A DNA stretch of 64,000 bases from Rhizaria sp. SCN 62-66 (Eukaryota): assembly GCA_001724265.1 (NCBI GenBank), contig MEDY01000285.1, forward strand, positions 1-64,000. Reading direction: 5' to 3'. Under the pieces are notes generated by a model. The model searched no databases. It was not told where the DNA came from and saw only the letters and a list, made by a program, of their open reading frames with translations. Position 1 is the stretch's first letter, and the number at the start of each line of letters is the position of its first letter. A program made the position numbers and the translations under genes. Positions 14,423 through 46,449 of the stretch are shown here, one piece after another.

Positions 14423-14456
<34 letters not shown>

Positions 14457-18519: not shown

Positions 18520-21500
18520 TCACCAGCCGCCGTATCCACCCGAACCGTAACCGCCGTAGTTGTTGTAGCTGGTTCCGGTGCTATAGCTCGCTCCATCACC
18601 CAGAAAGCGGAACTGTCCTGCAAACGCTGGCACCGGATAGGAAGCAAACGAAGCGGCATACGCGTCATCGTAGAAGTTCGAGATCCAGCCGAAGCCGAGA
18701 CTGCCGCTGCCGTAGCCGTACCCGCTGCCAGCGCCGTAACCCGTGCCGGCCCCTGTGCCGTAGCTGTTAACGCCGCCGTAGTTTCCGTAGCTGCCGCTGC
18801 TGTAGCCACTGTAGCCGCTGCCGCCGTAGCCGCCGCTATTGTATGCGGCTGTTCCAAACCGCCTTGCCGTAGCGCCCGCAGCGGCGTCGGCCCTCAAGGC
18901 GCGCATGCGGGCCCTCTTCGCCGCCGCAATTGCAAACGGCGTGACCATTCCTGAGTAAATCCTGTCCTCGAGCCCTGTATACCCACTATATGGCCGTCCG
19001 TAAACGCCACCGCTTGAGGGGGACTCGGCCTGGAACGAGCCCAGCGCGGGGGCCAAAACGGCGCTGCGCTGCGCAGTCTGCTGCGGGGCCTGCATGAACC
19101 CGCGCAGCTCGTTCGCAAATGCGGGGTTAAACCCACTGCCGAGCTCGCCGCTGCCGTGGAGCCCGTCTGCAAAGAGCACGCCGTTGTAGCCGGCGCCATA
19201 CTCGCGCGGTCCGCCCGTGCCGCGGCTGCGTGTGCCGTCGAAGAAGCCGAGGTCAAGCCCCGCGGGCGTGCCGCGCGAGCCTGGCGAGGGGTCAACCTGC
19301 ACGGCTGGAAGCGGTGTTGTGGAGGGCGCTGGAGCTGTTGTTGTTGCTGCTGCTGTCGTCGTTGACGGTGTCGCTGCTGTCGGTGCTGGGGGAGACGCAG
19401 CTGCCGCGGAGGCGCTGTTTGCGCTTGCCGGTGCAGGTGCAGTCGCCGGCGCAGCTGAAGTCGCAGGCGCATGAGCCTGTGTGGACTCAGGCGCTGTTGC
19501 AGGCGCAGCTTCAGGCGCCGCCTCGGATGCAGCATGTGCTGCTGAGGTAACGGAATGCGATGTTCCTTGCTCTGGCGTTGCCGGCATAGCTGCCGCCGTT
19601 GCTGCTGACGTTGTTGCTGACGCAGTGATGTCGTCAGCTGAGGACTGTGCCGGCAGCGTACGCTGTGGGTGTGAGGCGGGCGCGGCGGCTGTGCCTGACG
19701 GCGCAGACGCTTGAGTGGGCTCCGGTGCAACGGGTGCAAGGCGCGGCAACCCAGCAGCGGTTGGGGGTACAGTAGGCGCAACAGCCTAAACGGGGGGCGG
19801 CGCCGGTACTGCCACATGTGGTGTTGGCGAGACTGTTGCAGGGACAACAGTGGGTGTTGTTGCAGTTGTCGCTTGAGCGAGGACTGGCGGGGGAACTACT
19901 GGTGTTGCAACAGGTCCAGGAACAGCTTGCGATGTGGAGGTGACTACGGCTTCCGGCGCAGTCACCGGAGCAGCCTGTGGCGCCGCAACTGGAGCCGCAT
20001 GCAGTGTTGGCGGCGTGACCGGGACAGCATTTGGCGCCACGACATTAGCCGCCGGAGCGACCTGGGGCGCCGCGACCGGAGCTACAGACGGTGTCGGCGG
20101 TGCCATTAGTGTTGGTACAGCCGCAGGCTGTGGGGTGGGTGCAGGCAATGTTGGCGGTGCAACAGGAGAAGCAGTAGGTGATGATGCGAGAGCTGCAGCC
20201 AAGCCTGTCACAGGAGAAACAGGGACGGCAGCAGGCGCGAGCGCAGGCGTGAGCGGCGGCGGAGTAGTGAGGTCGCCGTGAGCACCCGGCAGCAGTGGCA
20301 GCACCTCTACCGGCGTTGCAAGCGTTTCAAAGCTGCGCTCCGTTGCAACACTTGCAGGGTTGGTTGCCACTGCAGGAATGACATCGATTGGCCGACCAAT
20401 CAGCGTTAGCAGAGCTGATACCAATGTGCTTGTTGCCGCTCTGTCTTGAGTCGTGTTTTCCAAAGGCACAGTGCCTGATGCAGCCAGCGCTGCAAGACCC
20501 GCGTCAATCTTGAGCGGCTGCGGAGCCGCTAATTTTACTGTTGTTGTCGGTGTTGCTGCGAGTACTGCCGGTGCAGCTACTGGTGTTGCGTCAGGTTTGG
20601 CGGCAGCGTCTGCAAGCGCAGGAATCGGCGCATGCGCGTGCGTGCGCTCATCAAAGTCTCCACTCCCCATTGTTATGACAGTACGGTGTTCTCCGGCTTC
20701 TGGTGCAAGAAGGATACCATCTGTGACAAGTGAGGCGACGGCGACGGGGTACGTAGCCAGCTCAGCAAGCAGCAGGTCAAGCGGAGACTCGACCACTGGT
20801 GTCGGTATTGTCATCCCTGCGTTGTGGGGGCTCGCGTTTTTGTCACGGCCGCCATTGCCGCCTCCAGTGTTTGCGCTGCTGTGGCCGTTGGGCTGCGTTT
20901 GTGGGAGGGCGAAAGGACTCAAACTGCGACCAATGCCTTGAAGACTCTGTTGCTGTTGTTGCTGTTGTACAACTTGTTGTTGAACAGGTTTTTGCGTGCC
21001 ACTGTCACTATAGGCCGGCGCACTGTAACTGGGCGCGGTGTATGTTGGGTAGTCATACGTTGGCGCTGAGTAGTAGTTCAACACCGGCCCCGTTGACTTG
21101 CTGGGGCCTGGCAACGACTGGTACGCGTGATCGCCGCCGTTGTTGTAGTTGTTATAGTTGTTGTAGCTATTGCCGTTGCCGTAGCCGTCCAAGCCGTACT
21201 GCGAGAAAATTGCGTCGCCCCACTCGACGCCGAATGACAGCCCGCCGCCGTTGGACGTCATCGGGTACGCACTGAATGCAGGCAGCTTAGCGGAACCGTA
21301 AGTTCCCAGACCTCCAGAGTATGACGGAGGTGTGGCGTACACCTGAGGCGGCGGCGTCGCATAAGCGGGCGCATACGGCTGCTGGTAGCTGTAGCCGGAG
21401 GACTGGTAGGGACTCGACTGGTACTGCAGAGTCCGGGCTGCACGGCCGTCACGGTGCAGGGCATAGGGGGAGTATCCGCTGTAAGAGGGCAGCGATGGAG

Positions 21501-21723
21501 GTGGGATGTAGATGGGGTCCGCGGTGGGCGCATAGTCGTAGGCGTATGCGCGGTCAGGCAGGTAGTACGGCGGAATGTAGGTTCCCGCGCCGCCAACAAG
21601 ATTGTAGCCGTAGTAGCCGCCGACATAGCGCGGATAACCCGCCTGGAGCTGCGGCTGCAGGAAAGCCTTGACAGCAAGGGCTGAAGCGAGTATGAAGGCG
21701 CTGATATGCCTTACATACCGCAT
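18520..21723 (-). CDS. Putative secreted structural protein (~1,067 aa): signal peptide, Tyr/Gly/Pro-rich ends, Pro/Ala/Thr/Val-rich core; one in-frame TAG at 19788-19786
   Basis: MRYVRHISAFILASALAVKA is signal-peptide-like. ORFs 19786..21837 and 18520..19749 are in the same frame, separated only by TAG (PAPPPV*AVAPTVPP). TGA stop. Confidence 0.75.
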
Positions 21724-22127
21724 TTCATGCTCTGCATGTAAGTGTGAGAGGACATGTATAAATAATAATGAGATTAAGGTGTATAGCATTGAGGCAAGCG
21801 GACTATTCGTCGAAATCATAGCACCGTTATTTCTCACTTCGGGTCAGACTTAAAGTTTTCAAGTCAGCTTCAGCAAGTCGAAAATTGGTCAGCTTCAAGT
21901 TGATTTTAAAGTTGAACATGAAGTTGTCAAGATATTTATCAAAATATACAGCGGGTTTTATTCAAAAGAAACCGTTCATCACGCGTACTTTGTTTTGACC
22001 GTGCATATAAAACTGGTCTAAGCCTAGCAAGCAAAATAGAAACACTTTAAAAAAAAAACAAGAGTCAACACGCGTCGATCGGCGAGTACAAAAACAGAAA
22101 GTAGATTCCAGCATCCGTATTATTATC

Positions 22128-26107: not shown

Positions 26108-27526
26108 ATGTCCGAGGCTGATGACGTGTTCCAGTTTGGTGACGCGCACCAAGGCATTGTGCCTGACTGCTTTGTAAGCGTACAAGCAGTGCCGCGCGGA
26201 CTTGTTCCTTTTGTTGGCGCCGACAACAATGATCAAGCCTTCAAGCTCCCCCACACTTTCGCCGTTGCATGCGTACTCATGGCACAGAACGTCGCCATCT
26301 TTTTGTTCGAGTACCTGGTACTGATGGGTACTGCACTCGCAAGCGCGTGCTATTGGCGCCCACTGCTACTGCCAGTGCTTGCCATCGCACTTGCTGTCGC
26401 CGCCTTCTGGCTTCACGAGGTTGACATCCTCCAAAGCCACTACGAAGCCGCTGCTGCAGCTGCGGGCACAAACACGTACTTTTCTCCTCAGACGCCCACG
26501 TCCACAGCATCCGCCGCGGTCACTGCCTTGATAGCTGCGCCTCCGTTGTTGCACGCGTCTCTGCACGCGTCAACGGCGACTGTGCGCAACAACGGTCCTG
26601 CGTCGCCGCCGCCACGTGCCCCGCTGTCAACGAAGGCAAATTCATTGCTGCGCCGCATGATGCCCTCCAGCGCCAGCGCCGCCACGGCCGCTGAGCCCGG
26701 TTCAGTGTTTAACACGTATTCAACTCATACGGCAAGTGGCAGCTTTGACGACGCAGCGATGGCGGCGGCGGCCGGCCTCGTTGGCCCCCGCGCCGCCGCT
26801 CTGGTGGCTGCAGTCCCGCTCAGTCTCATCGCAGGACTTGCTGGGGGGCGGCCTCTCGCGATCGCGCTTGCGTGCTGGCTCTGTGTCTCGGCAGCGCACG
26901 CTTGCACGCGCCGCGTGTCCCCGCAGCTGCTAGCGCGCGCTCGCGCAGCACGTGTTGGCCCTGGCCGCGCGCCCGCAGCGCCTCAGCGACTGCTGCTTCT
27001 GTTAGCGGGGGCGCTAACAGCAAACGCTGTGCCGCGTGCCGCTCTGCGCCAAACCTACAGCGAGAGCGGCAGCGACGACAAACGTTGGGCTGCGTTTAGC
27101 TTCGGCGACGGGTATGCGGCGTGGGCCTCGCCCATGGCCAGTAAGACCGCGTTCCCCACCTGCACAGGCGCAGCAAGGGATAAGTGTGGCGACAGCAGCG
27201 AAGAAGGCAAGGACGAAGGCGGCGATGGCGACAACAAGGACGAAGAGCGCGGCGGCACCCGCCGCGGCAGCGGCGCCGCGATTGGGCGCGCATACGGGCC
27301 CACGCGCGCCGCGGTGCTAGTCCCGCCTCTGCTCACCACGCAGCGCGCGGACTACACAGAGCCCGCGTCGCCGGCTGCTGACCCGGAACAGGGCGCTTTA
27401 CCGAGCCTCGAGGGGCTGCACCGGCGATCGGGCGCGCCGCCGCCGTACAGTAGACTGACGCTGCTGTCACCGCCCGCAGGCGGGTACGCAGGCCGCAGCG
27501 GGCTTAGTCTCGGCACGAAGATGTAA
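26108..27526 (+). CDS. Hypothetical membrane protein (5' structure uncertain)
   Basis: 472-aa GC-rich ORF with hydrophobic segments (AIFLFEYLVLMGTALASACYW, LLLPVLAIALAVAAFWL). TAA stop followed by AT-rich DNA. Confidence 0.6.
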   Translation: MSEADDVFQFGDAHQGIVPDCFVSVQAVPRGLVPFVGADNNDQAFKLPHTFAVACVLMAQNVAIFLFEYLVLMGTALASACYWRPLLLPVLAIALAVAAFWLHEVDILQSHYEAAAAAAGTNTYFSPQTPTSTASAAVTALIAAPPLLHASLHASTATVRNNGPASPPPRAPLSTKANSLLRRMMPSSASAATAAEPGSVFNTYSTHTASGSFDDAAMAAAAGLVGPRAAALVAAVPLSLIAGLAGGRPLAIALACWLCVSAAHACTRRVSPQLLARARAARVGPGRAPAAPQRLLLLLAGALTANAVPRAALRQTYSESGSDDKRWAAFSFGDGYAAWASPMASKTAFPTCTGAARDKCGDSSEEGKDEGGDGDNKDEERGGTRRGSGAAIGRAYGPTRAAVLVPPLLTTQRADYTEPASPAADPEQGALPSLEGLHRRSGAPPPYSRLTLLSPPAGGYAGRSGLSLGTKM

Positions 27527-27840
27527 TGACGTGTTAGAAAATGAGTTGATCTTTGCTGCAGTGATCAAAGTAACGCTTTCGAAGCGTGATTGCTGAAGCT
27601 TTCCTGAAATTGATATAATTCCTGTGTACGTACAATGATTGATGTTGTCTACGTACGAATATTAAAAGGAGTTTGGCAAGAATACAAATTATATTGTCAA
27701 GTACGGTGTTGAAAAGAATACGTACATAATTATGTATTCACCGGTCATTAAAGATACGATGTTGGGCTACATTTGAGCCGTGGCCACATTAGAAGCTTAT
27801 CATTCTCGGGTTTTGTCAGTGCATGAAGTGTACAACGCAT

Positions 27841-30800
27841 TCAAGCAGCGTCATCATCGTCATCATCGCCCATCACAACGCCTCCATCATCCTCCTCCTC
27901 CCCCTCCAGAACCTCCTCGAGCCCCTCATGTTCCTGATCTTGCTCCTGCTGCTCTGCGGCCTACTCCTCATCGTCCTCATCTGTAGTCTCTGCATTAGTG
28001 AGATGAGTCACTAGGGCAGCGAAGAACAGCGGCAAGCGCGCGGGGGCGCCCGTCGCGGCGTCGGGCGCGGCCAACGCCTGTAGTGCGGGCGGCAGCAAGG
28101 CCACGAACCCGTCCATACGCACTGCGGGCGCGGGGCCAGACGTGTCCACGACGACCTTGTACGCGCAGTCATCCCTAAACAAGAAGTTAGGAATAAATAT
28201 GAAAGTGAGATGAAATTAATATTGAAATATATAGAGATATGCGATCATATAGAGCTGTTTCACTGTTATTTTGACGTACTTGAACTTAAAGGTGACGCGG
28301 CGCTTGGCCTCGTTGACCTCGACTGAGAGCCCCAAAAGCTCCGTGATGCGACTCTGCGCGTTGTCCCACCGCTCCTTGACGTACTTCATCAGGCGCTCGA
28401 GCTCGCCACGCGCCGTCGCCGCCTCCGTGCGCGCCTCATCCGCGGCCGCAATGGCCTCGGCAGCCTGCGCGCGCGCCGACTCAGCGTCGGCCGCGAGGGA
28501 CGCCACGCGCGCGGCCACTGCGGCGGCCACGACGGCGGGATCGGGCCGGTCCGCGCCCGCCGCGGCGGCCTTGCCCCCGTGCAGCCCCAGCACGCTGCGC
28601 GCAACGGGGTCTGCGAGGTCCGCGAAATCCGTGTTGGCCTGCGCCTGCGCCTCGGAACTCATCAACCCGAACGAGTTGTCCTCCTCAGCGCCCGCCGCCG
28701 CAGCACTGCTAGCGCCCACTCCGGCCGGAGCGTCGGCGGCGACCTCGGCCAGGCGCGCGACGGAAGCGCGCAGCGCCGCAAGTTCGGCGGCAGCGGCCTC
28801 GCGGCGGAAAACCTCGAGGTGCTGTCGCATCCCGAAGCACTTGGTGCCACGCGTAAACTCGTCGTCTTCCTCCTGGTCCTCGCCATCTTGCTCGGCAGCA
28901 CCTCCAGTAACGGTGCCCGCCTTGGAGGCCGTGGCAGCGCGGAGCTTCGCGGCGAGGTCGTCTCGCGCGGCCTGCGCCTCTGCGGCCGCGGCGCGCAGAC
29001 CGGCACTCTCCTCTGCCGCGGCCGCCAGCCGCTGAGTGGCGCGCGTAGCCTCCGCGCGCTCTGCAGCGAGCTCAGCCTCGAGCTGCGCGATGCGGCCCTC
29101 GTGCGCGCGCAGAGCGTTGCCCGCTGTGGCGGCGTCAGGGGCCGCTGTCGCTGTGGCCGCAGCCGCTGCAGCAGCGCCGGGGCGTCTGCGAGTGCCCGCA
29201 ACGGTCTGCTCCTCCTCGTCGAGGTACGTCTGCAAAAGCCGCTGCAACGAGGCGTTGGCGTCTGTGAGCACCTCCTTGCGCCCGCTCTCGGCCGCCGCGC
29301 GCGCCTCAGCAGCGGCCGCCGCGCGCCGCGCCTCACGCGCCTCGTCTTCAGCCTCTGCAGCGCGCGCCCCGGCCGCGCTGAGGTCGGCCACCGCAGCGGC
29401 CAACTGGCGGCGCGCACTGGCCGCGGACGCCCGCTCGCGGCGGAGTGCGACTGTCATGCGCTGCAGCAGGAGAGCCAGGTCGTCCGGCGTCGCTGCCTCC
29501 CCGTCGCCGTCGCCCGCATCGTCGTCCGCGTCGTCGTCATCGCCATTGGCGGCGGCGGCGTGCTTGCAGTGGGCGGACCCGTCGCCCGTGAAGGTGATCA
29601 CCGCCGCCGCAGTGCGCGCGCGCGCCTTACCCTTGGCAGGGGTCACGGCGGGCGTGCCGGCGGGGGTCCCGGCCGCGCTGCCCGCGACTGGCGCCCGCAG
29701 CGCGGCCTCGGCGGCGACACGGCCCTGCGCAAGCGCGGTGCTCCACTCACGCGCTGCGGTCTGCAGCGCGGAGACGTCAACGCGCAAGCGGGCGGCGTCG
29801 TCGGCCTCGGACCGCAGTGAATGGGCCTCGCGCTCCAGGGCGATCATGCGCTCGTCGACGGCGCGCGCGCCCACGTCGCGGCGCCGCGCCGACGCCAGGG
29901 AGTCTTCGGCGCGGGCCAGGCGCGCGCGCAGCACGGCGGCCTCGCGCTGCAGCGTCAGCACGTCACCAGCGTTACCGCTAGCGTCGGCACCTTCACCAGC
30001 ACCGCCATCACCAGAGGTGGAGGATGAGGATGAGGATGAGCCTGTGTCGGCGCCGCTGCCGGAGCGGGCGGCGAGGACACCGGAGACGGCGAAGCGCAGG
30101 CGCGCTTCGCGCTTCAGCTTATCAACCTCGAGCTAAAAATCGAGATGTAAAACAACGAGAAATATCAGTGATGTGTAAGAAAAAAATTTGCTTCCTGATA
30201 CCAATGAAATCCTTAAAAATCCATCGTTTCACATCATGCGTGCAAATATTTCCGTACCCGTGCGGCCTCAGTCTCTGCGGACAGACGGTCCTGCGTGGTC
30301 AGCAGCTGCTCGACCTGTGTCATCGCCGCAGCCGTCATGCTCTCCGCCGAGGCCAGTCGCGCGCGCAGCTCAGCCGTCACGTCCACCGCGCCCGCACTCG
30401 CGCCCGCGCCGCAAGTCACACCGACGCCGGCGCCAGTGCCAGAGCCGGAGCCAGAGGAGGCGGAGGCGAGAGTGAGTGCAGCGCGCGCGGTGGCGCTGAC
30501 GTCGCGGCGCGCGGAGGCGACTTCGCTGTAGGCGGCCGCGAGCTCTGCCTGGAGGCTCGCAATGAGTCTGTGATTGTGAAAACAGTGCAGAAACAACATC
30601 ACAAAACAAATGTGAAACGGTGTGAGAGAGATCATGTTCATTTTCATTGACAAGTTCGAATCCTTGGATACAGATACAATAAAGACTCAGCTAGATCTAC
30701 GACTGACGTACTTGACTTGCTCGTTGGGTGCCCTGCGCGCCTCCCTAGCCTCGTCCAACAACCGCGCAATAACGGCTTGCAGAGCCTCAACCTTGGTCGC

Positions 30801-31520: not shown

Positions 31521-32256
31521 TTTGAACAGAGCGGACCCAGAGGTGATCCTGGGCTGAAACAAGATGCGGGCAAATCTCACCAGACGGACGGATGCGGTGT
31601 TCAAACTCTCTTCGAGGATCAAGACCTACAGACAGCAAATGATTAAAAATGCAAATACGAGCAAATATTAACCTCAATATATAACGTCGTTAAGCGAGTT
31701 AAATTGTATATGACGATCAAGAAAGTGCACTCTGACCTGAGCGAGGTCAGTCCACCAGAAGCGACCGTTGCTGCCAGCCGAGCTTAGAGTTACGGTCAAA
31801 GTCACGATGTTACGATTGCATTTACGGAAGATATTTACATAGTATGAAGGGCTGTGAACGTAAAAGTGTAAATTATGTATATTGCAGATTTTGGTGGGTG
31901 TAAATAGATTGTTTGGGGACCCAAAGTGGTGTCCTTAAGATGAAAATACGGTGTAACGTAAAAGCCAACATCAAATGCGATGCTCCAGCGACAAAATAAC
32001 AAACAAGAATGAGCATGTCCCCGGGAGTCATTTCCTCGGCTAACCGCTCTCAATTACTACATACGGTACACATGTGTCATTTGAATTGACATCCGTTCCC
32101 CGACCTCATCAGCCTCGTCGCTGCTTGGTCTCACTCAATATCTTATACTTGTTACTCGACTCAATATCAACAGTACAGTTCAGGTCAGACACACGTCGCT
32201 GTGTGTTCCAGCTCACACGTTCTTCCGCGTGTCACGCGTTTCGCTCACTCGCTCAC

Positions 32257-35200
32257 TCACGCGTTGCGCACAGTGCGCGCCTTGGTGAAGATGCGGGGCA
32301 CGATACACATGGACATGAGCTCCTGGAACAACAGCTTGGACGCGTAGGGAATCTCCACACGCGAGATCGTCGACGTGTTCTTGCACATACTGCACGAGTA
32401 GTCATTGCGCCGGATGTCCGCCTTGCACACGAGTCCGCACTCGTCGCACACGTGCACGGAGAACTTGTCCGAGGACAGGAACAGACGGTCACGCATCATG
32501 TTGGCCGCACCGTGGGAAATCATACAATCGCGCTCCATTTCACCGAAACGCAGCCCGCCGTCCTTGGAGCGGCCCTCCATGGGCTGGCGCGCGAGCGATT
32601 GCAGCTGTCCGCGCGCGCGCGCGTGGATCTTGTCGTCGACAAGGTGCTTGAGGCGCTGGTAGAAGGTCGGCCCGAAGAAGATCGGCGCCTCAAGCCGCGA
32701 GCCGGTGAAGCCGGAGTAGAGGACCTCGTTGCCGTGCTCCTGGTAGCCGTGCGCGTGCAGCGCCGTGGAGAGGTCCTTGACGGTGACGTCGAGGAACGGC
32801 GTGGCGCGGCCCGCCGAGCCCTGGAGCGCGGCGATCTTGCCCAGCAGACACTCGACCAAGTGCCCGATGGTCATGCGCGACGGGATGGCGTGCGGGTTGA
32901 TGATCAGGTCGGGCGTGATGCCTTCGATGGTGAACGGCATGTCCTCCTGGCGGTACGTCATACCGCAGGTACCCTTCTGGCCGTGGCGCGAGGCGAACTT
33001 GTCACCGATGCACGGGATACGGATCGAGCGGATGCGAACCTTGGTGATGGCGTTGCCGTCTTCGTCGGTCGTGAGCATCACCGTGTCGCAGACGCCGGAC
33101 TCGGTCTTCTTCATCAGCGTCGACGCGTCGCGCTTCGTGTAGTGCGACGCGCCCTGCGCGTTCAGGTGCACCTCCGAGGCCGGGAGCGGACAGGTCTTGC
33201 CGATGACGACGTCGCCGCCGCCGAGGTTGCGGCCCGGCGACACGAGGCCGTCAGAGTCGATCTTGTGGTAGGCGTCGGCCATCTTGAGCTTCGCGGTCGT
33301 CTCGCGCGCGGGGAACTCGAACGTCTCCTCCTCGCCGATCTTGTTGCTCTGCTGGTCCGAGTAGAGACGGAAGTACATCGAGCGGTACAGACCGCGGTCG
33401 ATGGCGGACTGGTTCAGAATCATGGAATCTTCCTGTGATCCCGCAAAGCGCGAAAGAGAAGCACAGAAAAAGAAAATCGAGATGAAAAAGAGTGAGATTA
33501 ACGATAATTATAAAATGTTTTTAAGTACGTCGTGAAAAGCAAACATCGATATAACAAAATTACTAATTGTTATTTTAGATAAATGTAATCATACCTGGTT
33601 GTAGCCGGTGTAGCAGCCGATGGCGACGACGGCCATCGTGCCGGCGGGAAGCTCCTTAAAGTGGATGTAGTTAATCGCATCCGACGCCACGAGCGGCTTC
33701 TGCGGGTAGTAGAACACGTGGGCAAGCGTGTCCATGCGCGCGTTGAAGTTAGTGGTGTACACACCCATGGCCTGCTTACCCATGGCGGACTGGTAGGTGT
33801 TACGCGGCGACTGGTTGTGGTCTGGGAACGGCACGATCGTCGCGCACACACCGAGCACCATCGCAGGGTGGATCTCGCAGTGCGTGTACTGGTGGGTGGC
33901 GTGGTTGTCCTCGACGTCACGCACCATCATCGCGACCAGCGAGCACTCTTCCTCGAGCGTGTCGAGGTACTCGACGACGCCCTCGGTGACGAGCGTGTCA
34001 AACCGCAGCTGCCGCGCCATCATGCGTTGCACGTGTTCCTTGCGCAGCTGCAGCCGTCCGTCCTCGACGATGAGCAGTGGACGCACCAGGCGGCCAGGGT
34101 CGGTGTACAGACGCACTTCGCGGTCCTCGACGGACCACACGATGGACATATCCCAGGGCAGCCCGCCAAGACGGCGCTCGATCTTGATGCCCGCGACGAG
34201 CTCCTTGGCGTCGGACGTGATGCCGACCCACGCGCCGTTAACGAGCACCTTGGTGGACCCCGGGATGGCGGCGGGGGAGACGAGGTCCAGCGACTCCATC
34301 GACAGCTCCTTGAGTCGCCCCAGCACGTCGTGCGCGGTGCGCCCCACGGTCACGGTACACATGAGGGACATGTTCTTGACGATGCCGCACGCCTGGCCCT
34401 CGGGCGTCTCGGCGGGGCACACGAGGCCCCACTGCGTCGAGTGCAGCTGGCGCGGCTGCGTCTGCTTGCCTTCCTTGCCGATGGGCGCGATGGACCGGCG
34501 CAGGTGAGACAGCGCGGCCGCGAAGGTGAGCCGCGACAGCACCTGCGCGACGCCCGTCTTGGTCGCGGGCTCGCCGCGCTTCGAGGTCCAGTTGCCTGTG
34601 GAGAGCACGTAGCGCAGACCGGCGGAGATGTGATTGATGCCCTTGAGGATGTTAACGAGGAACACTGAGTCCGAGACGCCATTCTTGACCTTGCGTTCGA
34701 CTTCGCCGCGCAGCTCAGTCATCGTCTGCACGTAAAGCTGGCGGAACACGTTGGCGATGAGTGTGCCGGCCATATCAACACGCTTGTTACCGAAGTGGTC
34801 ACGGTCGTCGAAGTTGCGGCGCTTGAGCACGGTCGCGAGCATCTTGTTCACGGCGTAACCGATGAAAAATGCCTTGGCGACGACGCGGCCCTCGTCGAGA
34901 CCGATGTGCGGCAGCAGCTGGCCCTTGAGGATGTTCTCGGCGGTCTTGATACGCTGCGGCAGCGCCGTGCCGGGCGCGACGGCACGGGAGCCGATGTACT
35001 CAAGCGCGAGGTTACGCGAGGTGATGTGAGCGGCCTCCTCGAGCGACGGCCGGACGAGATCGACCATCTGCGTGTCGTTGAGGTTGTACACGATGCGCTC
35101 GAGGATCTCGCGGTCGGACGCGAAGTTGAGCGCGCGGAACAGCACGACGAGCGGGATCGGCTCGTTGACGTGCGGGATCGACACGTGGAGGTAGTGGCCG

Positions 35201-36118
35201 CCTGCCGCGCCGCCTGTGCGGCTCTTGATCGGAACAAGGCGGATGCTCAGCGAGCCGGGCGGGCGCGTGGTGTCCTGCGCCATGGAGCGGACCTCGCAGC
35301 AGATGCCGCGGCCGTCTGAGAACACCATGACCTGGTTGGCGGCGGCGCGCTCCTGGCCGATAACGGCCTTCTCGGAGCCATTGATGATGAAGTACCCGCC
35401 CTGGTCAAACGGACACTCCTTGGCGTCCGTCAGCTGCTGCGGGGAGAGACCCGAAAGAACACACTGGTCGGAGCGGAGCATGATGGGGATTTTACCAAGG
35501 GGAACGCGCTCGGCCGTCTCGACGTTGGGCTCGCGGGGGTTAAGAACCTCGTTGTTGTTGGTGTCAACGGTCACAACGCGGCGGCGCACAATGCAGAATA
35601 GGTCGGACGCGTATGTGAGGTTGCGGAGGCGGGCCATGTGGGGGGTCAGCGGGGTCGTGACGTTCATCTTGTCCGTGTACTGCGGCTTCAGAAGCGTCAG
35701 AGTGTCGAACTTGATCTCGAAACGCTCTTTCTGTAGCGGCGCGTAATGATGGCAAAATAAATAAAGCGATACAAGTAATGGAGTTGGGAAGTGAGAGAAC
35801 TGGGGGCAAACCAAACAAACCACACAAAGATGGGCGAACAGAGCAAGGTGGTGCTACAAAGTTTGAAATTGCGTTAAGGACAAGATAGGAAGGGGAAACG
35901 TACGTGTCCGAGCTCGGCATTGTTGCGGGAGGACCGCTTGGGGTAGAACTCAAGCGCGTTGTACTCGTCGACGATTTGCTGGAGCGTAATGGAGGCGAAC
36001 GTGTTGAACGAGTCGAGCTGGTGGCGGACCAGACCGTGCGAGTTGAAAAACTCCTCGATCAGCGACCAGGAGTCGTCCTGCACGACATCGACGCGCGGCA
36101 TCGTCTCGTAATCGTCAT
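32257..36118 (-). CDS. RPB2: RNA polymerase II second-largest subunit; exons ~36118-35904, 35730-33595, 33432-32257 (extreme 5' end uncertain)
   Basis: [88 protein letters not shown] stop. Confidence 0.97.
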
Positions 36119-36851
36119 CTGCGAGGCCGCACGGCAAGTGGGGAAGCGGGGGAGACCGGTGGAGAAGCGGGAGCGGAGCCGGAGTGGGTGAGCGCGAGGT
36201 TCAGGCGCGGACGAGTGGTTGAGATACCAACACGGCGCTCCACAGAAGAAAATTGGACGATCCAAGCGATCAAATAGAAACCATAGACATCTCCAGGGCA
36301 AGATGGTTCAATAAAATTTGCCCACGCTTTATAAGCCCAGCTCGGGCGGGCAGGATCGGCAATAATGAATAGACGTTAGAGGCACTTGGCTCTTTGCGGC
36401 ACTGGACGAGATTTTGACCCTGACGTACCCATGTTTAAACGTTGTTTAGCAAATCAATGCCACAAAGAAAACTATCCCCTCAAAGTGCGTTTAAAGGTTT
36501 AATTATGTCGAATGTGGCGCTGACTGCAACCGGCTAGATACCTTTTTCTGCCTCGTCTCGGTTCGAACTTCGGTCGCTTGGTCGGCCCGGTGGAGGAAGT
36601 TAAGCCGCTAGTCGCTGGAACAGGACTTGTGGTGGGATCCACATTTGCATCCGGAAGGCACATGTAATGTGTCCAGATTAAAAATCGGTCGTTAGAGCAA
36701 AATAATTAAACTAAAATATATGTGTATGGCCCCTCAATGCTTCTCAGAACGACATTCTGATAGTTATATCTGCTCACTAAATATTCGCGCCGTGCTTGCA
36801 GATCTTTGCTCCCGCGCGCTTCCTCTGGCGTTGCAACGCGCACTTCTGACT

Positions 36852-39317
36852 TCAGTCAACGGAACTAAACTCCGTAGTCTTGCTGGCGGGCAAGTAGACG
36901 AGGAACGTGCCGTTATTGGCGAACGCACCGGGCGTCACGAACTTGCAGCCCTGATAGTCGTCCTCAACGTTATCAACGACGTCCGCGAGCAGCAGAACAT
37001 CAGGCAGCGGATACAGCCGCAGCGCGTGATCAAAGTTCCACGCCACGGGCTGCTTCGTCAGCGCCATGGGGCTCAGATGCGCCTGATCGCAGACGGTCTT
37101 GGCCACAGTCCCGCACAGCTTCACCGCGTCCCCCGCCGGCTCGCACAGTACTGCAGCGCGGCGGAAGCGCTGGTGTAGGTCGCCGCGGAAGATGCAGATC
37201 TCCTGGCCGAAGAACAGCAGCCGCGCCGGGTTCGACGCGCTGACAAAGTGGCGGACTTTAGCGCGGAGGCGTGCGGTAAAGCCCGGGGCTAGGGCCGGCG
37301 CGGGGAGGATATTGCCGATGTTGGGGTCGCGCGGGCCGGGAATTAACACAACCTGTGTAGAATATAGCAATATAAAACAGTTGCACAAGTTAATAAATGT
37401 GAATTCATGTGAAATAAGTAAAGTGATCAAATATTGTTAGGTGTAGTTCTTGTTTCGCCTTGATATAACCGAAATTGATTATACGATCTCGAAGCGGAAT
37501 GTACTGATGCGTACCTGTGTGTTCTGCGCAATGTAGGGGTGTTGTGCGATGATATCGGCTAGCGTGTCAAACAGCTTCGTGTACGCGGCGAGATCGCGCG
37601 CGCGACTGAGCATCGCCGGCGACGCAAAGTTGCCGATGAGGACGATGACGGCCGCATTCATGCTCTCAAGTCCCTGGAACAGCTTGCGGAGGCGCCGCAA
37701 CACGGCCGGATCGTCCAAATGCACTTCACTGAGGAAAACAACGCGGTCCTCTGCGCGGTGCTGCGTGAGCGCCTGCGCGAGGACGTCCTTGGTGCGCTGC
37801 AGTGCGACGAGGTTCTGCTGCGTCCCGCACATGTCGAGCGCGGGGAAAGAGCGTAACGTAGTAGCGCGGTCCTCAGCGGGCGGCGCGGCGAGCATCGAGA
37901 CGACAAAAACGGAGTTGGAGACGACACCCTCGGCAATCACAAAGCAGTGGTCCATGTACAGACCCTCCAGGTCGGCAGCGCCCTGAGTCGCGCGGCGAAA
38001 ACAATCAGGATATGAAAGGCAAGTGCATGTCTGAGGAGAGGAACTTGAGTTGCTTTGATCGAAAATGGATAGAGAGCAATAGAAGTGTCATCAAATATTG
38101 CAAAGTCGACAAATATTCGTTGGCTTTTTGTTTTAATAGCTTGCGTACCTCTTGCGTCGCGAAGCGGCTGAGGTCAACACGGATCGACGCGTTTTCGTCC
38201 TCGATATGCCACACGCCATCCGCAACCTCGGTGAGCATGCCGAACACGCAGCGCTCGCCGGACTGCCCCAGAAGCGCCTCGATCCGCGTGATCTCGAACA
38301 ACGGGCCCTCGCGACTGGCACTGGTGGCGGCCGCGGCGGCCGCGGCGGCGGCGGAGGTCGCGAAACGCGGGTCGCGGCGCAGGCGCTGCTCAACCAAGGC
38401 ACGGCGCTCCACGAACATCTTCGACTTGTCCACCGCGGACTGCAAATGTGTGCGCAACAGAGTGAAAATGTGTGTGTGTAAAGTGGGAGTGTTGTGGTGC
38501 AGAAGGTTAGAGAGAGTGAAGAGATACATTTTTCGATGACAAAACTAAAAACAGTTTGTGAATACATAAGAACTCGTGATATATTAAATCCCGGCAATTT
38601 AGTTATATATAGATATATGATGATTTTAAAGCATGCGAATGAAACATACACCGTGGAGCCTGTGCTCGCGCGTCGAGGGGACGTAGGTCCTCCGCGAGGC
38701 CGCGTAATCCATCACAGGCATCGCGTAAGCGTCCACAACCTGCGAGAACCGCGGGTCAAACACGCCTGCGGCGGCGCGCTCAAGCAGGACCGCTTCCTCG
38801 GCCGTGGCGGGGCGTGTGGTGCCGTCGTCAGTCATGACGAGTTGCTGCGACGACACGCCCGACGCAAACGCGCTGCTGCTCGCACTCGCGCTCGAACTCC
38901 TACTAGCGCTGGCGGCCGCGGTGGCGCGAATAGTGGCAAGCGCGGCGGAGATCGCGGCGGCCTCGACGAAAGAGGAGGAAGCACCCGCGGCGTCGGCTTT
39001 GAGGGCGCGCACGAGGGTGTCGACTGCGGACTTGACCAGGGCCGACTTGGACGCGTCCTGCGGGATGCAAAAGCAGAGCAAAAGATAAATAATACATTGT
39101 AAACCAATAGGTCTAGATGACATTCATAAGACATATAGAGATATTTTGTTAGGCATGTTGTTGTGGAGTGAGAGAGAGAACGTACGGGGCAGTACTCGAA
39201 GCCTCGGTCGACCTCTTCGGCGACGAACTTGCAGACGCTCTTGGCGGCGTCAGCACGAAGCATAAGACCATGACTCTTAAACCCACGGTTGATCAACGGC
39301 AGGTACTCGGTATTCAT
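36852..39317 (-). CDS. POLE2: DNA polymerase epsilon subunit B; exons 39317-39186, 39057-38650, 38439-38149, 37982-37515, 37352-36852
   Basis: FKSHGLMLRADA, VFGMLT...IEDENASIRVDL, FLSEVHLDDP, VLIPGPRDP, SNPARL, EICIFRGDL, QAHLSP, WNFDHALRLYPLPD. Four phase-consistent introns. TGA stop. Confidence 0.93.
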
Positions 39318-39746
39318 GGCAGCTGCGAGGATAGCAGCACAAGTGTGCTGTGGGGAGCGAGTGAAGTAGGCAGGGATGTGTGGCGCACGAACAAGTGGCT
39401 AGTCACGGGAAGAAGGGAGGCTGCAGAGACACAATAACAAATTTGTAGACAATATTATTAGCAAAACATGTACAAATCTAGTATTTAAAAAGCAAAACTC
39501 AGTGGCACTGCTTTTGTCGACTGGTCTATAGAGATCTCTCAAGTCAAAAATAGCGCGCCACTTTCCGCGCTAACCTGGATAGCGGCTGGAGAGTGAACAC
39601 CACTAACGAAACTTCGTGTAATTCTGCCGATATTACTTATTTTTGCTCTGTAAGGCGGTAATTCCATGGTTCATATAATCTAAACCGCATATTCAAAATA
39701 TATCGACTCCTCATATTGTTTATAGTGCAGAGCCGGCTCTAGACCG

Positions 39747-41070
39747 ATGAGCACCAGCGGAGCTCTTGAGCTCTGGTCCTCCGTCGGTCTTGCCAGTGCC
39801 CCAGATCCGGCGGACCCGACGCTGTTCACAGTTGTCCGCACTAGGGGCGAATGGCTACTGATGTACTGCGGCGTCGTTATCGTTGCTCGCTCGTAGGACA
39901 CTCCTCCCCGTCTCCTGACCTCTGCCGAGTGCGCAATCGACCTTCCTCTCAATGAACAGATACTGCAGTCCACCACGTCCCCAAAAGCGGCCGACGCGGC
40001 TGCAATCCTTGCCAATACGGTCACTCTTGTTGCTTATACTTGTGACGACCCATCTACGGGTGGCAACGAGTTCTTGGTCTCAATCTCGGCCGTCACACCA
40101 AGCAGCGCCACTCCAGTCGTCACCCTCCCGTTTCCATTCGCGCCAACCACCACGAGCACATCAGAGGATTCGTCGAAGCTCGCCTCTGCAGCGACTGTTG
40201 TGCACGACCCGCATGTGCATCTGCTGTCGGGCCCCATTGTCGCGCTGAGCGCCCCGTACTGTGCATTGCGGATGCACACAGAGCACGCTAATGCTGCGCA
40301 TGCAAATGCTGCGTATGGAAACGTTGCGCTCCCGCTGTTGTGGGCGATACACCCCCCTGCTGTCGTTACTGCTGCTGCGGCTGTTGATGCCGCGACCTCT
40401 CTCTGGGCTGCGACACCCTTGGCGGCCGCTTGCTCTGCTGCCGCAGCCGCCGCCTCCTCGACTGTGCCTGACACCACCAGTGCGGCTGTGGCCGCTGCCG
40501 CGACTGGGCAGTCTGCGAGGACCGCTGGCGCGCTATGGCGCCGCGCCGCGCCGCCCGCGCGCGCGCTGCTGTCGGTGCCGCTGCCTTGCGGTGCGCGCGC
40601 TGTCTGCGCTGTTATCGCTCCCTCTGACAGCGACCGTGGTATGCGCAGTAGCTTTGATCACAACAGCAGTATAACTGTTCAACTCGCATGTTTTGCCACC
40701 ACTAGCGAGACGGACTGGCTTGTTACGGCCCCGCTGTCCGCCGCTCTTGACCGCGCTGCTGTTGCTGACTCGCATGCACCTGTTATCATGGCGGCTGCGC
40801 CTGTGCCAGTTTCCGCTGTTGCAGGGCTTGAGCTGTCACGTGCCGCTTTAGCAACCGCACTCACGGCCACGTTTACACGGCTTAAGCGCGCACTGCTGGT
40901 CATGACCCCCGCCGGGAATTATGTCTCACTAGCAACGGGTGCATTGTTGCAGCAGAACGACGCCACGCCTGCTGTAAGTGAGGACCCGTTGGCGCGGTGG
41001 TTTGTGTCGCTCTGCGCCGGCCTTTCACTCGCGGCCGGAGTCCAAGTCACCGTTGCGTACAATGACTGTG

Positions 41071-41151
<81 letters not shown>

Positions 41152-42323
41152 GCAGCAGCAGCAGCAGTGGCAGCAACAGTGGTGGGTACAGTGGCTTTGT
41201 TACACTGGCGACTGTGCTTGTCCCTGTATACACGATGCCGTTCACTCAGCCGCCCCCCGCGTCGGCCTGGGCGCCACAGCCGCAGTTCAATTCAGGAGAG
41301 TCCAACCTGGGAGCCAACACGGAGGCTGACACTAGTGATGGCTCTCACTTGGATACGGGCGTGCTGCCTGCAGATCCCTGTGCGCTTGCTGCGCTTGTGC
41401 GCGCGCTGTTGCAGCAAGCGCTGGAGATTGAGCTGTCAGCCGCTCTCGCTCGCACGCGCGCGTTGGCCCACTCCGCCCACAGTGGCCTCGGCAACGGTGC
41501 CGGTTACAGTGACGAAGGCAGTGCGAACTGTCCCGACTGCTGCGGCGACTGCGGACTGGCGCGGGGGGCAACGGCGCGGCAAACGCTACGTGCCCAGGGC
41601 TCCGGCGGCACCGCACACGCGCTGACACTTGTCACACCGGCAGTGTCTTTGACCCACCACTCTGTCACTGGTGGTGAATCTGGGCTTAGTGCGGCGCAGT
41701 GCGCAAGTATGGGCCCGCTTGGCTGGGCGCCGTTTGACTGGGCACTCCTGCTCACGGCCAACGCGCACACCGAGACTGAAACAGCTGCGAATGCTGGTTT
41801 ACGCGCGATTGCTGCGAGTGCTGATGTGACGCGACAGGCGTCGCTTGTCACGGGCTCTGTGCCCGCGACCAACGCTCTTTGTTGCGCTGGTGCTCGCAGT
41901 TACTCTGCTGTTCATAGCCACAGCCCGCTTGCGCACGGCTGGCGCAAAGATGCTCTGGATGTCGTGCCGGTGCTTACGCCGACGGCGCCGCCGCCCGCGG
42001 GCATGCGCGCGCAGTGGACGCTGCCGCCGCTGCCCGCGGCGCTCTTACCACGGCTCGCGGCCGAGTCTTCGGCGCGGTTGATGTCGCGGGCGGTGGCGCA
42101 GGCCAAGTCGCTCACGCAGAGCAAACTCAAAGCACAACTGTCGAGCACCGAGAAACATGCTCAGAGTAGTTTGGAGCAGAGCATGGTGGCTGAAGACGGC
42201 AAGCCCGTGCAGATAGCAATGGTGGACGATGATGAGGTTGCAGTGACAGACGGCTGGCCAACCGCGACTGTCCGCGCCGCTGATGCAGCATTTGCGAGTC
42301 ACATTGCCAAGCTGATGCAATGA
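39747..42323 (+). CDS. Hypothetical protein (~858 aa) with poly-Asn; in-frame TAG at 39894-39896
   Basis: ATG at 39747 opens a frame continuous with ORF 40074..42323 except for one TAG (VIVARS*DTPPRLL). TGA stop. No family recognised. Confidence 0.6.
41073..41150 (+). repeat. Perfect (AAC)26 coding microsatellite (poly-Asn)
   Basis: Directly visible; in frame in the 39747-42323 gene and followed by (AGC)n poly-Ser. Confidence 0.95.
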
Positions 42324-42576
42324 AAAACGATCGTATTTAAGGTTATTTAGAAACAACAAGATGATACATAGAACTTAATCCACCTTCTTTGCAATAGTCG
42401 AGTTTTGAATATGTAAATTTCAGTGTATTGGTGTGCATTGAGCAGTTGCTATGTAACAGGACAATCTTTGGCCAGCCGTGCTTTCAAAGAATCATGACCG
42501 CATCTTGGCAGTTTAAGAGCAGAGATACTCAAAATATAAGAAATTAATCAATCGTACAGTATCAACAGCAAGTTTC

Positions 42577-44699
42577 TCACGCGTCGCCACTGTTCTCTGT
42601 CGCATTATTCGTCGCAACAGTGGCACTGGAGGCAGTGTCAACCGCATCTGCGCTCATATCATCAATAGCAGCGTCAGCAGCCTCGCCGTCAGTTCCCACA
42701 GCGGCCGCAGCCGCATCAGCCTTGGCAGCAGCCTTGGCAGCTGCAATGGCAAGCCCCGCCGCGGCACGCTCCTTGGCCAGCTTCGCGTTGCGCTCGGCCC
42801 GTTCTTGCGCCTTGATCTGATGCGGCAGCAGCCTCCGCCCGCCCTCTGCACTGCCAGCATCGGCGCTGTTGCTGCTGCGGTGGCTAGGGCGGTCGCCAGC
42901 AAGCGGCTCGTACCACTCCGGCCCCATCCCGGCGCGCAGTCGCTCCTCAGCGGCGAACGGCGGCCTGAGCGCGCCGGCGAAGTGCGTGCGCACAAGCTGG
43001 TGGAAGAGCGCGACCTGCGCGCTCTCGTAGGCCAGGGCGACCTGCTTCTGCGCGCCGGGGGACGAGAGCGCGGCGTGGGTGCTGGAACAGCTCGCAGTCG
43101 CAGCCTTCTCCTTAGCAGCAGCAGCAGCAGCAGTGTCAGCAGCAGTATCAGCATTGGCGTCCTCTGCAATGACAAGAGTAGAGCTGGCCTCCTCTTTGCT
43201 GTCGTCCTCAGGCTTAGGCTCCGCGTGTTGCTGCTTGTCGTGCTTTTGTTGTTGCAGAGCCAGCTTCTCCTTGTCTACCTGCGCGGCACGATCAAACACG
43301 TGCTTAAACCAGCGCACGCCCGCGCCGACATGCGAGATCTCCTCCAGCTGGATCTGCTGCAGAAACGCCGCGGACCGCGCGTCGCCCAGCGCTCGCAGCT
43401 TCGCCGCGAGCTGCGGACCGCAATCGAGCCCGTGTGCCTCGTGAACCATGTGGACGACTGCGAGACGCGCCGGCAGCGAGCCGTGGGTGCGTAGGGCGCT
43501 CTCCCACAGCCCGTCGTGGACGGGGAGGACGCCGTAGTGCGCGCCCAGCTCGACCAGGCGGCGGTGCCACGTCATGAAGTGACGCGCCTCGTCGCTGCGG
43601 CAGCGTCCAGACGAAAATGAAACAAACGAGAAAAGTAGGGGAAACAAGAACAACAAGTGAGAGGTCGATGAAACATTGCTTTGGTGGTAAATGTAACTTG
43701 ATCCAACTAAAACAGTAAAATACCCATTTAAATGTGGACAATATAAATGAATGTAATAATATAAATGCACATTTGGCAAATAAGCAAGATATATCGTGCA
43801 AAATGTGTAAACTTCGTACCTTGCGACCTGCAGCCAGTTCTCAAAAAACGGCCGGGGTAACACCTCAAACGTCATCTCCCCGTCCCTGTTTTCCTCCACC
43901 GCACTCGCATCATCAGCGGCGTCATCGCTGTTGTTGTTGCAGGCGACTGGAATGCGCGGGAGGCCCGTGGCGGGGGACGGGCCGGAGAAGCGCGCGATAA
44001 TATCCCAGGAGAGGTCAACGGCGTAGGATTCGATGTGGGCCTGCGCGTGGACCAGCCGCACTGCAGCCGGCACGGACAGGCCAGCGCTCTGTGCGCGCGG
44101 ATGTTACAAAGCATAGTGTTAGCAAAGCAAGATGAAGACGAGATATAAGTGAGTGAGTGCAAGAGATGTGACAGCAAGAGAGCGGAGACAGACAGCGCGG
44201 CACAATGGAATGCTGTGTGGAAGTGAGAGATACAGCGGTGTAGTGAGAGAGCTTGCGACGTACCATGGCAACAACCTGCGCCGGAGCGACCGTGGTGAGG
44301 TGCAGAGGGCGCGCGGGGCGGTCCGGGACGGCGACCTGGACGGTCTGGTCGCCGATGGGCAGCGCGCCGGACGTGAATGCAGCATGCGCCAGTTGAGTCA
44401 GCTGCACGGGAAACCAAAACAATGTAAAACAACACAGTGCAACGTGCGTGGAAGCAAAAGCGGAAGTGAGATAAAGCAACGATATCAGTCGCTGCGGTGA
44501 AGCGGGGATTGCGGCGTGGTTTGGGACGTACGGTGCACTTGTCGACGGGGTCGTGCGTGGCGAGCACGGCCAGCGCATAGTCAATAAGCGTGTAAAGGCC
44601 GCTAGTGTCAACAACGGGCACGTCCGCGGAGACAGGTGCAGGAGCCACAGACGCAGCGGGGGCCGCGGGAGGGCTCGTAGTAGAGACACTGGCACTCAT
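42577..44699 (-). CDS. DUF455 ferritin-like di-iron protein; introns 44531-44402, 44263-44089, ~43819-43595
   Basis: PDRPARP, LVHAQAHIESYAVDLSWD, DEARHF, YGVLPVHDGLW, RLAVVHMVHEAHGLD, EEISHVGAGVRWF, LRPPF...RLRAG..WY. TGA stop. Confidence 0.88.
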
Positions 44700-45028
44700 C
44701 CTCGGCAGGTGGTCAAGTCTAATGCAGGCGGCGGAAAGGAAATTAAGAGGGGTTATAAAAAATAGGTTTTAGAAAAGAATATTGATCATATCTTAAATAC
44801 GAAATGATGTAAAATAAATCCTAATGTGCCTATTAATAGTCAGTTATTGCTTTGGAAAGCATCCGCTTGAGCAATGGCTGGTCGACAGCTCCAACGATGG
44901 CCTCCTTGGGAGTCGAAAAAAACGGAGCGTAATCTCGCCATTTCGACCGTCTATGGTGATAAAAGCACATTCATGATATAGAAACAAGGCGCTCACATTT
45001 GTCAATTAAATTACATTTTTTTCTGTAG

Positions 45029-46449
45029 ATGTCTGACGTGACGGGAACGTTCACGGACGACCAGTCGGGAACGGGCTTCACCCGCTCCCGTGGCTCGCGC
45101 GGCGAGGACATCACGCGCGGCCCTCTCTCGCAGTCCCATTCAATGGGGGACATGTCCCACAACCACATTGGACTCGAACTGTCCGAAGGTCCTACGCGTT
45201 TCACCTTCCGCTTCGACGCCGACTATCTGGAACGGTCCGTCTCTGATCAGTCTCTTTGTAGCTCCTTCATGCCCCCTTTGTCTGATCTCCTTGCAACTCT
45301 CTTCTGTGCCCCGCGCTGACCCTTCATTCATCATGTTCGCTTTTTTCGCGTTTGCCCCCGCATTACAGTGTGATCGAGGCCTGGGGCGCGCACGTGCGCG
45401 GTACCACTGTCGCAAACGAAGCCACTCTGGCAGCCATTCTGCGCGAGCTTGGCTTCAACCCGACTTACTCCGAGATCGAAGAGTACCTCCAGGCCTACGA
45501 CCGCCACGGCGACGCCACCAGCGTCAACTTCTCCTCCCTGTGCGACATCATCAAAACCTTCATGCAGGACAATCCCGTGAGCGTGTTCGAAGCGCAACTC
45601 ATCAATGCATTCCGCGTTTTCGACGATGAATCCGAAGGCTACGTCGGCACGCACGTCATCGACCGTGCACTCCACCAGCTGCCCTGCATCTCCAAGATGA
45701 CCGAGATCCGCGAGCTGATGTCAGAGCTTGACCGCGAAGGTGAAGGCTACATCTCCTATGAATACTTCGTCTCCTCCCTGTGCTCCAACTTCGCCAAGGG
45801 CCTCGCAATGGCGCCCGCGCCGCAGACTCTTAAGTACACCAAGTACGAGGTCCGCGACACGCTCGACGGGCTGATCGACAACGGCCCGCGCGACGATGGC
45901 GCGGACCCCGAGGCCGGCGCTGGCGTGATCGAGCGCCGCGAGCGCGTGTTGAAATAGCACGCCGCGCGCGAGGCCGCGGCAGCGGAGCTGCGCGCGCAGG
46001 GCAAGGCGGGCAAGAAAAAACTCAAGAAGAAGGCCAAGAACGCTGCTGCTGGTGCGAATACTGCGAAGAAGGACTCTGCGGCGGCGGTGGATGGAAGTGG
46101 GTCGTCGCTGAGCCGGTCCAACTCGGCGTCTCTGTCAGCGAACGCGCCGCTCGCGCCTGGCGGGCTGGAGGGGTCGAGCTCCAGTGCGAGCGCCCGGGGC
46201 GGCCGCCGCAGCAGCGACGATCTGGGCATGGGCATGGGACTGGGGCTCACGGCGGCGCAGCGCGGGGGCGCGAGCGTGGTCGACGGGCTCGCTTTTGACG
46301 ATGATGACGGCGGTAATGAGGATGAGGACGAGGATGCGCTGGCGGAGGCACAGCTGGGACTGGGCACGCAGGCGAAACAACAGCAGCAACAGCAGCGGCG
46401 CAAGGACGAGGACGAGGGTGAGGACGAGCTTGCGGGTATCCAGCGTTGA
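45029..46449 (+). CDS. Calmodulin/centrin-like EF-hand protein with Lys-rich and acidic tail; intron 45235-45368; in-frame TAG at 45955-45957
   Basis: LRELGFNPTYSEI, LINAFRVFDDESEGYV, ELMSELDREGEGYISYEYFV. The frame continues past TAG (RVLK*HAAREAAAAELRAQGKAGKKK...) to TGA at 46449. Confidence 0.8.

Follow-up and report, generated by a model that had tools for sequence, protein, structure and literature searches.

In-frame TAG codons in four genes of the window

The meaning of the codon UAG was analyzed in a 64-kb stretch of DNA from Rhizaria sp. SCN 62-66 (contig MEDY01000285.1, positions 1 to 64,000), referred to below as the window. The window is a piece of a eukaryotic genome with a GC content of 52-76% in 2-kb bins. 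An initial annotation had proposed that UAG is read here as an amino acid while UAA and UGA remain stop codons, on the basis of four genes with an in-frame TAG, designated genes 1 to 4 with their TAG sites 1 to 4 (Table 1). All four TAGs were found where they had been placed, as were the extensions of 421, 39, 808, and 163 codons of open frame beyond sites 1 to 4, respectively, and the next in-frame stop was always TGA. What is abnormal is that all four putative TAG ends run into open, coding-like sequence, whereas none of the TAA or TGA ends in the window does.

Gene 1 comprises 1,053 codons from its putative start, 631 of them upstream of the TAG (685 if the frame is measured from stop to stop), and its codon bias is weak along the whole length. 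It belongs to no Pfam family, and the GC content beyond its TGA drops to 0.42 and then to 0.23. A repeat family coding for Tyr/Asn/Gly (family D5) has copies at positions 18546-18588 and 21126-21186, in the same frame on either side of the TAG; since no repeat copy overlaps the TAG, no paralogous codon can be read at site 1. For gene 2, neither a Pfam family nor, by sequence, a relative in PDB was found. Gene 3, with 857 codons, had no homolog at an E value of ≤0.001 among 8,000 candidates when read with TAG as glutamine, and its post-TAG open reading frame (ORF) matched PDB by sequence with poly-Asn noise alone. The GC content beyond the TGA of gene 3 is 0.28. Its asparagine tract, at about 41040-41160 on the plus strand, consists of ~27 Asn codons in a row, after which Ser codons are repeated; contigs from other sequencing runs break or are misjoined at this tract and at the CAG/AAC-type repeats at 43114-43134 and 46364-46396.

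Table 1. Positions in the window of the TAG sites, the genes that carry them, and the gene for the second-largest RNA polymerase II subunit homolog, RPB2
Feature	Position	Strand	Description
Site 1 TAG	19786..19788	-	Inside a 1108-codon low-complexity ORF (18520-21843)
Gene 1	18520..21843	-	Ala/Pro/Thr-rich, with Tyr/Gly/Ser-rich ends; ends at TGA 18520-18522
Site 2 TAG (weak)	27961..27963	-	Within the acidic tail at the C terminus of gene 2
Gene 2	27841..30132	-	638-codon exon, AT-rich intron, and last exon holding site 2; ends at TGA 27841-27843
Gene 2 intron	about 28176-28250	-	GC 0.23
Site 3 TAG	39894..39896	+	49 codons past ATG 39747
Gene 3	39747..42323	+	Orphan protein with a poly-Asn tract; ends at TGA 42321-42323
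Site 4 TAG	45955..45957	+	61 codons beyond the EF-hand pair of gene 4
Gene 4, last exon	45364..46449	+	EF-hand protein (Pfam EF-hand_7) whose tail is first basic, then acidic; ends at TGA 46447-46449
RPB2	32257-35853	-	Pfam

Gene ends and coding signal beyond the TAG codons

A control set of 24 candidate gene ends was compiled from the coding score, Pfam C termini, and the fall in GC content. For about eight of these ends, a Pfam domain extending to the C terminus serves as an anchor, the remaining ones rest on the coding score together with the GC drop, and four belong to the TAG-bearing genes themselves. The coding score is a codon log-odds value trained on 5,076 codons of conserved genes. 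The 24 ends comprised 9 TAA, 15 TGA, and no TAG; the earlier count of 18 ends (6 TAA and 12 TGA) was too low, and its lack of any TAG end held. Of the stop trinucleotides counted across the window, 21% are TAG, and at that share the probability of finding it at 0 of 20 ends is ~0.009. Within the window, UAG was not used as a terminator and UAA and UGA were, with the limit that only about eight of the ends are anchored by homology.

The open frame beyond the 24 TAA and TGA ends extended over 0-57 codons, which was exceeded by sites 1, 3, and 4 in comparison with all 24 controls and by the 39 codons of site 2 in comparison with 22 of them. The GC content of the 60 nucleotides (nt) downstream was 0.58-0.78 at the TAGs versus 0.25-0.60 at the control ends. 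In mononucleotide shuffles of the downstream sequence, the frame stayed open in 0/5000 cases for site 1, 787/5000 for site 2, 0/5000 for site 3, and 106/5000 for site 4. The coding score per codon over the 39 codons downstream was negative at all 24 control ends (-1.37 to -0.05), and reached -0.44 at site 1, +0.57 at site 2, +0.09 at site 3, and +0.85 at site 4, so that sites 2, 3, and 4 scored above every control and site 1 did not.

At sites 1, 3, and 4, the frame of the TAG was the best of the six frames both upstream and downstream. Downstream of site 4, the sense frame scored +0.40 per codon versus 0.04 for the best antisense frame, a pattern that matches the confident genes; an antisense ORF overlaps this part of gene 4, and a shadow frame at site 4 was rejected on the basis of that difference. 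At site 2, the opposite strand scored equally well, which is the weakness of this site. At site 3, the next in-frame ATG lies ~125 codons past the TAG, and the interval in between is unlike a leader because its GC content is 0.59, its frame is open (which occurred in 159/5000 shuffles), and the frame of the TAG gives its best score. Given the shuffle counts and the choice of frame, sites 1, 3, and 4 are far beyond chance, and site 2 taken alone is not. An in-frame UAG with coding sequence running on was found with strong support at sites 1, 3, and 4 and with weak support at site 2.

The bases following the TAG were GGCT, GGCC, GGAC, and CCAC at sites 1 to 4, respectively, similar to those after real stops. 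Programmed stop-codon readthrough is not supported, as the four sites have no common stimulatory context. In 15 of the 24 TAA and TGA stops, the next base is G, often as TGAGTGA or TAAGT, so that a second stop lies one base out of frame directly after the first.

Introns and the remaining TAG codons

The RPB2 gene is split by 84 nt with a GC content of 0.21 and a gene for an SMC protein by 99 nt with a GC content of 0.28, which indicates that short AT-rich introns lie within GC-rich exons in this genome. Eight introns inferred in the window were 72-166 nt long, with a GC content of 0.21-0.41 and T-rich acceptors. The surroundings of the four TAGs had a GC content of 0.55-0.73, and the nearest AT-rich trough was 145-1144 nt away. 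On both grounds, an intron over any of the four sites was rejected, and the concern raised in the initial annotation that the TAGs might be spliced out is answered by the sequence composition in favor of exonic positions.

A scan of the whole window for TAGs that follow 40 open, coding-like codons retrieved seven, none of them a gene end: sites 2 and 4, an intron donor at 2929, and four TAGs antisense to known genes. The TAG at 2929 is in the splice donor of a 166-nt AT-rich intron, the acceptor of which contains the TAG at 3091. The TAGs at 9794, 30133, 31626, 35854, and 52342 are either part of the T-rich acceptor of an AT-rich intron or in the interior of one. A weaker fifth locus with three TAGs, to which 103-123 had been assigned in the initial annotation, was rejected as coding and has no bearing on the question: positions 100-126 hold three tandem copies of a telomere-like 9-nt unit, CCCTAATAA on the plus strand and TTATTAGGG on the other, and the TAGs come from this repeat inside the contig.

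Homologs of gene 4 across the TAG

In the database, gene 4 is represented by P0245 (195 amino acids [aa]), which stops at the TAG. The homologs P0246 (44% identity) and P0247 (45% identity) align through the TAG, to query residues 243 and 264, respectively, and P0246, P0247, P0254, and P0258 all extend beyond the TAG-equivalent position, each with a Lys/Arg-rich block. In three of the four homologs, in which the EF-hand pair was marked by Pfam and the tail could be measured, 93-187 residues follow the pair. Gene 4 would have 61 such residues if it ended at the TAG and 225, including a Lys/Arg-rich block, if read on. Judged from sequence, the resemblance of the post-TAG part to the homologs is one of architecture only. 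A profile of the homolog tails was matched better by 1/500 shuffles than by the pre-TAG part of the gene 4 tail.

The TAG of gene 4 is in a variable stretch, and the residue aligned with it shifts between two alignments, designated A1 and A2. A match of glutamine to glutamine at the TAG in A1 was rejected as an artefact of writing the codon as Q, since it was gone in A2, where TAG was written as X. The assignment of glutamine in the initial annotation is supported by no test.

Recovery of the sites in other assemblies and in RNA

Contigs assembled from other sequencing runs were compared over the stretch 27000-46900. In runs X2 and X3, sites 2, 3, and 4 were covered with 0 differences. The contig tables of these two runs are identical despite different studies and years, and therefore X2 and X3 may be one data set and count as one witness. 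Run X4 represents a strain with dozens of single-nucleotide polymorphisms (SNPs); it covers sites 2 and 3, and among the differences listed there was no change at either TAG, although its contig extends just 21 nt beyond site 3 and another 57 differences fall outside the listing. An assembly slip at sites 2-4 was rejected because the TAGs are kept in the contigs of other runs. The possibility of an assembly error, which had been raised from the outset, is in this way answered by X2 and X3 for sites 2-4 and by X4 for sites 2 and 3, the coverage being of sites 2-4 only.

The polyA RNA run X5 provides no evidence either way at the TAG sites. One of its contigs, at 33305-33664, is unspliced over the RPB2 intron and carries SNPs of strain X4. 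The lack of splicing suggests that the X5 library may contain DNA or pre-mRNA, and the SNPs point to a sister strain.

Gene content, source, and lineage of the window

Pfam domains typical of nuclear genes were detected by a scan of the window in a 3-hydroxyacyl-CoA dehydrogenase, a TALE homeobox protein, RPB2, a DUF455 protein, the EF-hand protein, TPR proteins, SMC, and a DEAD-box helicase. In total, 140 ORFs of at least 150 aa are present, and the high GC content yields many long spurious frames. The minus strand at 3995-15468 carries two very long frames (1932 and 1971 codons), which are linked via AT-rich introns near 9797-9905 and 10205-10300 and resemble a single gene of ~3,800 codons without a Pfam family.

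Window DNA is carried by bioreactor or wastewater metagenomes. One run may be its source, two others contain 96% of the sampled words, a fourth contains 72%, and runs X6-X12 have small shares; in a polyA metatranscriptome run, 21% of the sampled window words were present. Among the matches listed (120 per search), the N-terminal part of RPB2 (718 aa) had ≤49% identity to any named eukaryote, and its best metagenomic relatives were P0124 (72% identity), P0126 (56%), and P0125 (54%). In a quick RPB2 tree of 45 sequences, thinly sampled and leaving out Stramenopiles, Discoba, haptophytes, and others, the window formed a long-branched clade with P0124, P0125, and P0126 (100% support in the Shimodaira-Hasegawa-like approximate likelihood ratio test [SH-aLRT]), nested in a set with 99% SH-aLRT that includes the one named rhizarian. 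On this sampling, the lineage is regarded as unplaced, and it seems to lack a named relative with sequence data. Besides a giant-virus relative at 38% identity (L002), a scan of metagenomes for RPB2 yielded just L001, which is the same DNA in a piece of 3957 nt, and a scan of genome contigs with the relative P0126 retrieved seven contigs of metagenome-assembled genomes (MAGs), all unrelated. A scan of viral contigs returned the giant-virus MAG contig again (L002/L010, 38% identity), the sole other RPB2-like locus retrieved from the metagenome and viral collections, which is unrelated to the UAG question.

UAG as a probable rare sense codon

The interpretation preferred here, to which a probability of about two in three is given, is that UAG does not terminate translation in this genome and serves instead as a sense codon of very rare use, with UAA and UGA as stops. 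Every test made within the window favors this proposal of the initial annotation, and parts of the case made for it are weaker than had been stated. For full-length products of the four genes, translation would have to pass the TAGs, and it is at TAA and TGA that genes end. By analogy with other lineages, UAG would be decoded by a tRNA with the anticodon CUA, which would read UAG and not UAA, or by a near-cognate tRNA, and an eRF1 with weakened recognition of UAG may be expected (PMC11687900, PMC5304391). The eRF1 gene is not within the window.

Glutamine would be the likeliest residue from precedent only, and leucine, glutamate, serine, and others are possible too; the residue cannot be inferred from the window because no TAG sits at a conserved column. 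CAG, one base from TAG, is the favored glutamine codon in the conserved genes (207/234 Gln codons). The tRNAs for leucine, glutamate, serine, lysine, tyrosine, and tryptophan are likewise one anticodon change from CUA. The TAGs are confined to non-conserved, low-complexity parts of the proteins, and their rarity fits a recent reassignment or an inefficient decoding that is tolerated in fast-evolving low-complexity parts. A tentative extension, which may well not hold, is that codon capture is seen in the window at a stage that is early, or else arrested, in a deep lineage with a GC-rich genome, UAG having been lost as a stop and just reappearing as a sense codon in fast-evolving parts. Such a codon-capture intermediate is predicted and has seldom been seen.

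Several observations weigh against decoding of UAG as sense. The evidence base is small, 64 kb with about 24 genes, and TAG occurs only four times in ~17,000 codons (a rough sum over ORFs), or ~0.2 per 1000. None of the sites falls at a conserved column and 0 TAGs were found in the 5076 conserved codons, in agreement with the rarity described at first. No tRNA gene and no Rfam match (0 each) was detected in the 64-kb window. If counted as gene ends, the four TAGs would be an ordinary 4/24 share under the standard code, so that the tally of stops adds no independent evidence. That only TAG occurs in frame, without TAA or TGA, had been taken as evidence; the observation stands, and its weight is small because 946 of the 1312 one-step precursors of a stop in the conserved-gene codon counts lead to TAG, so that ~72% of one-step nonsense paths would do so. 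In BLASTP, the 163 post-TAG residues of gene 4 gave no significant match (E values of 2-5), and their score against the homolog-tail profile was reached by 67/500 and 56/500 shuffles. Site 1 is outside the stretch of the assembly comparison, and in run X5 no contig over any TAG site was present among the listed pieces and bin depths. Finally, UAG is in wide use in the published lineages that read it as sense, unlike the four TAGs of the window, an example being the rhizarian exLh (PMC5304391).

Among the explanations that retain termination at UAG, a leaky or ambiguous stop is unlikely, and it accounts for some of these points directly. Weak release and near-cognate readthrough would keep the downstream sequence under selection, and TAG ends could occur elsewhere in the genome, which is compatible with the small sample of 24 gene ends, with the absence of a cognate tRNA from the 64 kb, and with TAGs that are very rare and restricted to non-conserved low-complexity parts, as if decoding were costly. 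TAG is nevertheless found at 0/24 ends, and no readthrough context is common to the sites. In gene 3, moreover, the TAG comes after 49 of 857 codons and in gene 1 after 631 of 1053, so that even moderate termination would waste most of the product.

Two explanations under the standard code are less probable. Recent nonsense mutations, in truncated alleles or young pseudogenes with downstream frames that have not yet decayed, appear improbable: the TAGs are all in poorly conserved protein parts, and with ~72% of one-step paths giving TAG, all four new stops would be TAG ~27% of the time, yet 4 of ~24 genes would have to be hit and the mutations fixed across samples, without an ordinary TAG stop in the other 20. 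The TAGs are also unchanged in contigs of other runs, including the SNP-bearing strain at sites 2 and 3, the 421, 808, and 163 codons that follow sites 1, 3, and 4 show no second disabling change, and the codon bias persists past site 4. The least probable explanation is that the gene models are wrong and the TAGs are gene ends or part of introns or leaders, followed by separate genes, shadow frames, or chance frames. The many spurious ORFs in this GC-rich DNA, the seven other in-frame TAGs that do prove intronic, the antisense ORF over the post-TAG part of gene 4, and site 2, with 39 codons open in 16% of shuffles and an equal score on the opposite strand, are in line with it. It is opposed by the AT-rich nature of introns and intergenic DNA, none of which comes closer than 145 nt to a site, by the sense score at site 4 (0.40 versus 0.04 for the best antisense frame), by the interval of ~125 codons without an ATG past site 3, which nonetheless has a high GC content, an open frame, and its best score in the frame of the TAG, and by the two halves of gene 1, which have no AT-rich spacer between them.

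Sense decoding of UAG, if true, would make this organism a natural test of the loss and recapture of a stop codon and of the need for AT pressure. Codon capture, if it applies, would run contrary to the usual tie of stop-codon reassignment with AT-rich genomes. Gene calling with the standard code or table 11 would shorten proteins here, as in the database copy of gene 4.

Comparison with known UAG codes

Codes that give UAG and UAA separate meanings are described as rare, with about eight lineages, the majority of them ciliates (PMC11687900). As listed there, they include exLh with UAG as leucine, Iotanema with glutamine, Scotinosphaera with serine, and Protocruzia with glutamine, as well as three events in phyllopharyngean ciliates and the ciliate PL0344 (PMC11687900). 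In literature searches, which did not cover supplements, no listed report described a UAG code from a wastewater eukaryote with a GC-rich genome.

Among the closest known cases is the fornicate Iotanema spirale, in which UAG is reported to code for glutamine and UAA and UGA are stops (PMC5304391, PMC11687900). Both cases have UAG alone in frame and UAA kept as a stop in a non-ciliate flagellate lineage (PMC5304391). In Iotanema, however, the UAGs are described at conserved glutamine columns in many genes, in contrast to the four TAGs, none conserved, of the GC-rich window (PMC5304391). In the rhizarian exLh (Sainouroidea), UAG codes for leucine, with 384 in-frame UAGs reported across 71 genes (PMC5304391). 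It resembles the window in having a UAG-only change, in being an uncultured protist known solely from the data of others, and in a lower use of UAG in highly expressed genes (PMC5304391). It differs in that UAG is a main leucine codon in some gene sets, whereas no leucine signal was seen in the window (PMC5304391). Any kinship between exLh and the window would be putative, the link being the thinly sampled RPB2 tree, in which the window falls in the 99% SH-aLRT set with the one named rhizarian.

The codes of phyllopharyngean ciliates, Protocruzia, Scotinosphaera, and the ciliate PL0344 likewise have UAG as sense and UAA as stop, and some of them were reported from metagenome-assembled genomes (PMC11687900). 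The ciliates are given there with a GC content of 27-54% and wide use of UAG (PMC11687900). The window, with its GC content of 52-76%, long multigene contigs, and short AT-rich introns, is not ciliate-like. In Blastocrithidia, reassigned codons are reported to be non-randomly distributed and avoided in highly expressed genes, and reassignment is tied to AU-richness (PMC12153298). The shunning of reassigned codons in conserved or highly expressed genes is shared by TAG in the window, while in Blastocrithidia all three stops are reassigned and the genome is GC-poor, a trend opposite to that of the GC-rich window (PMC12153298). Compared with the known split codes, the new features of the code considered here would be a GC-rich genome, a very low usage of TAG, and a separate lineage.

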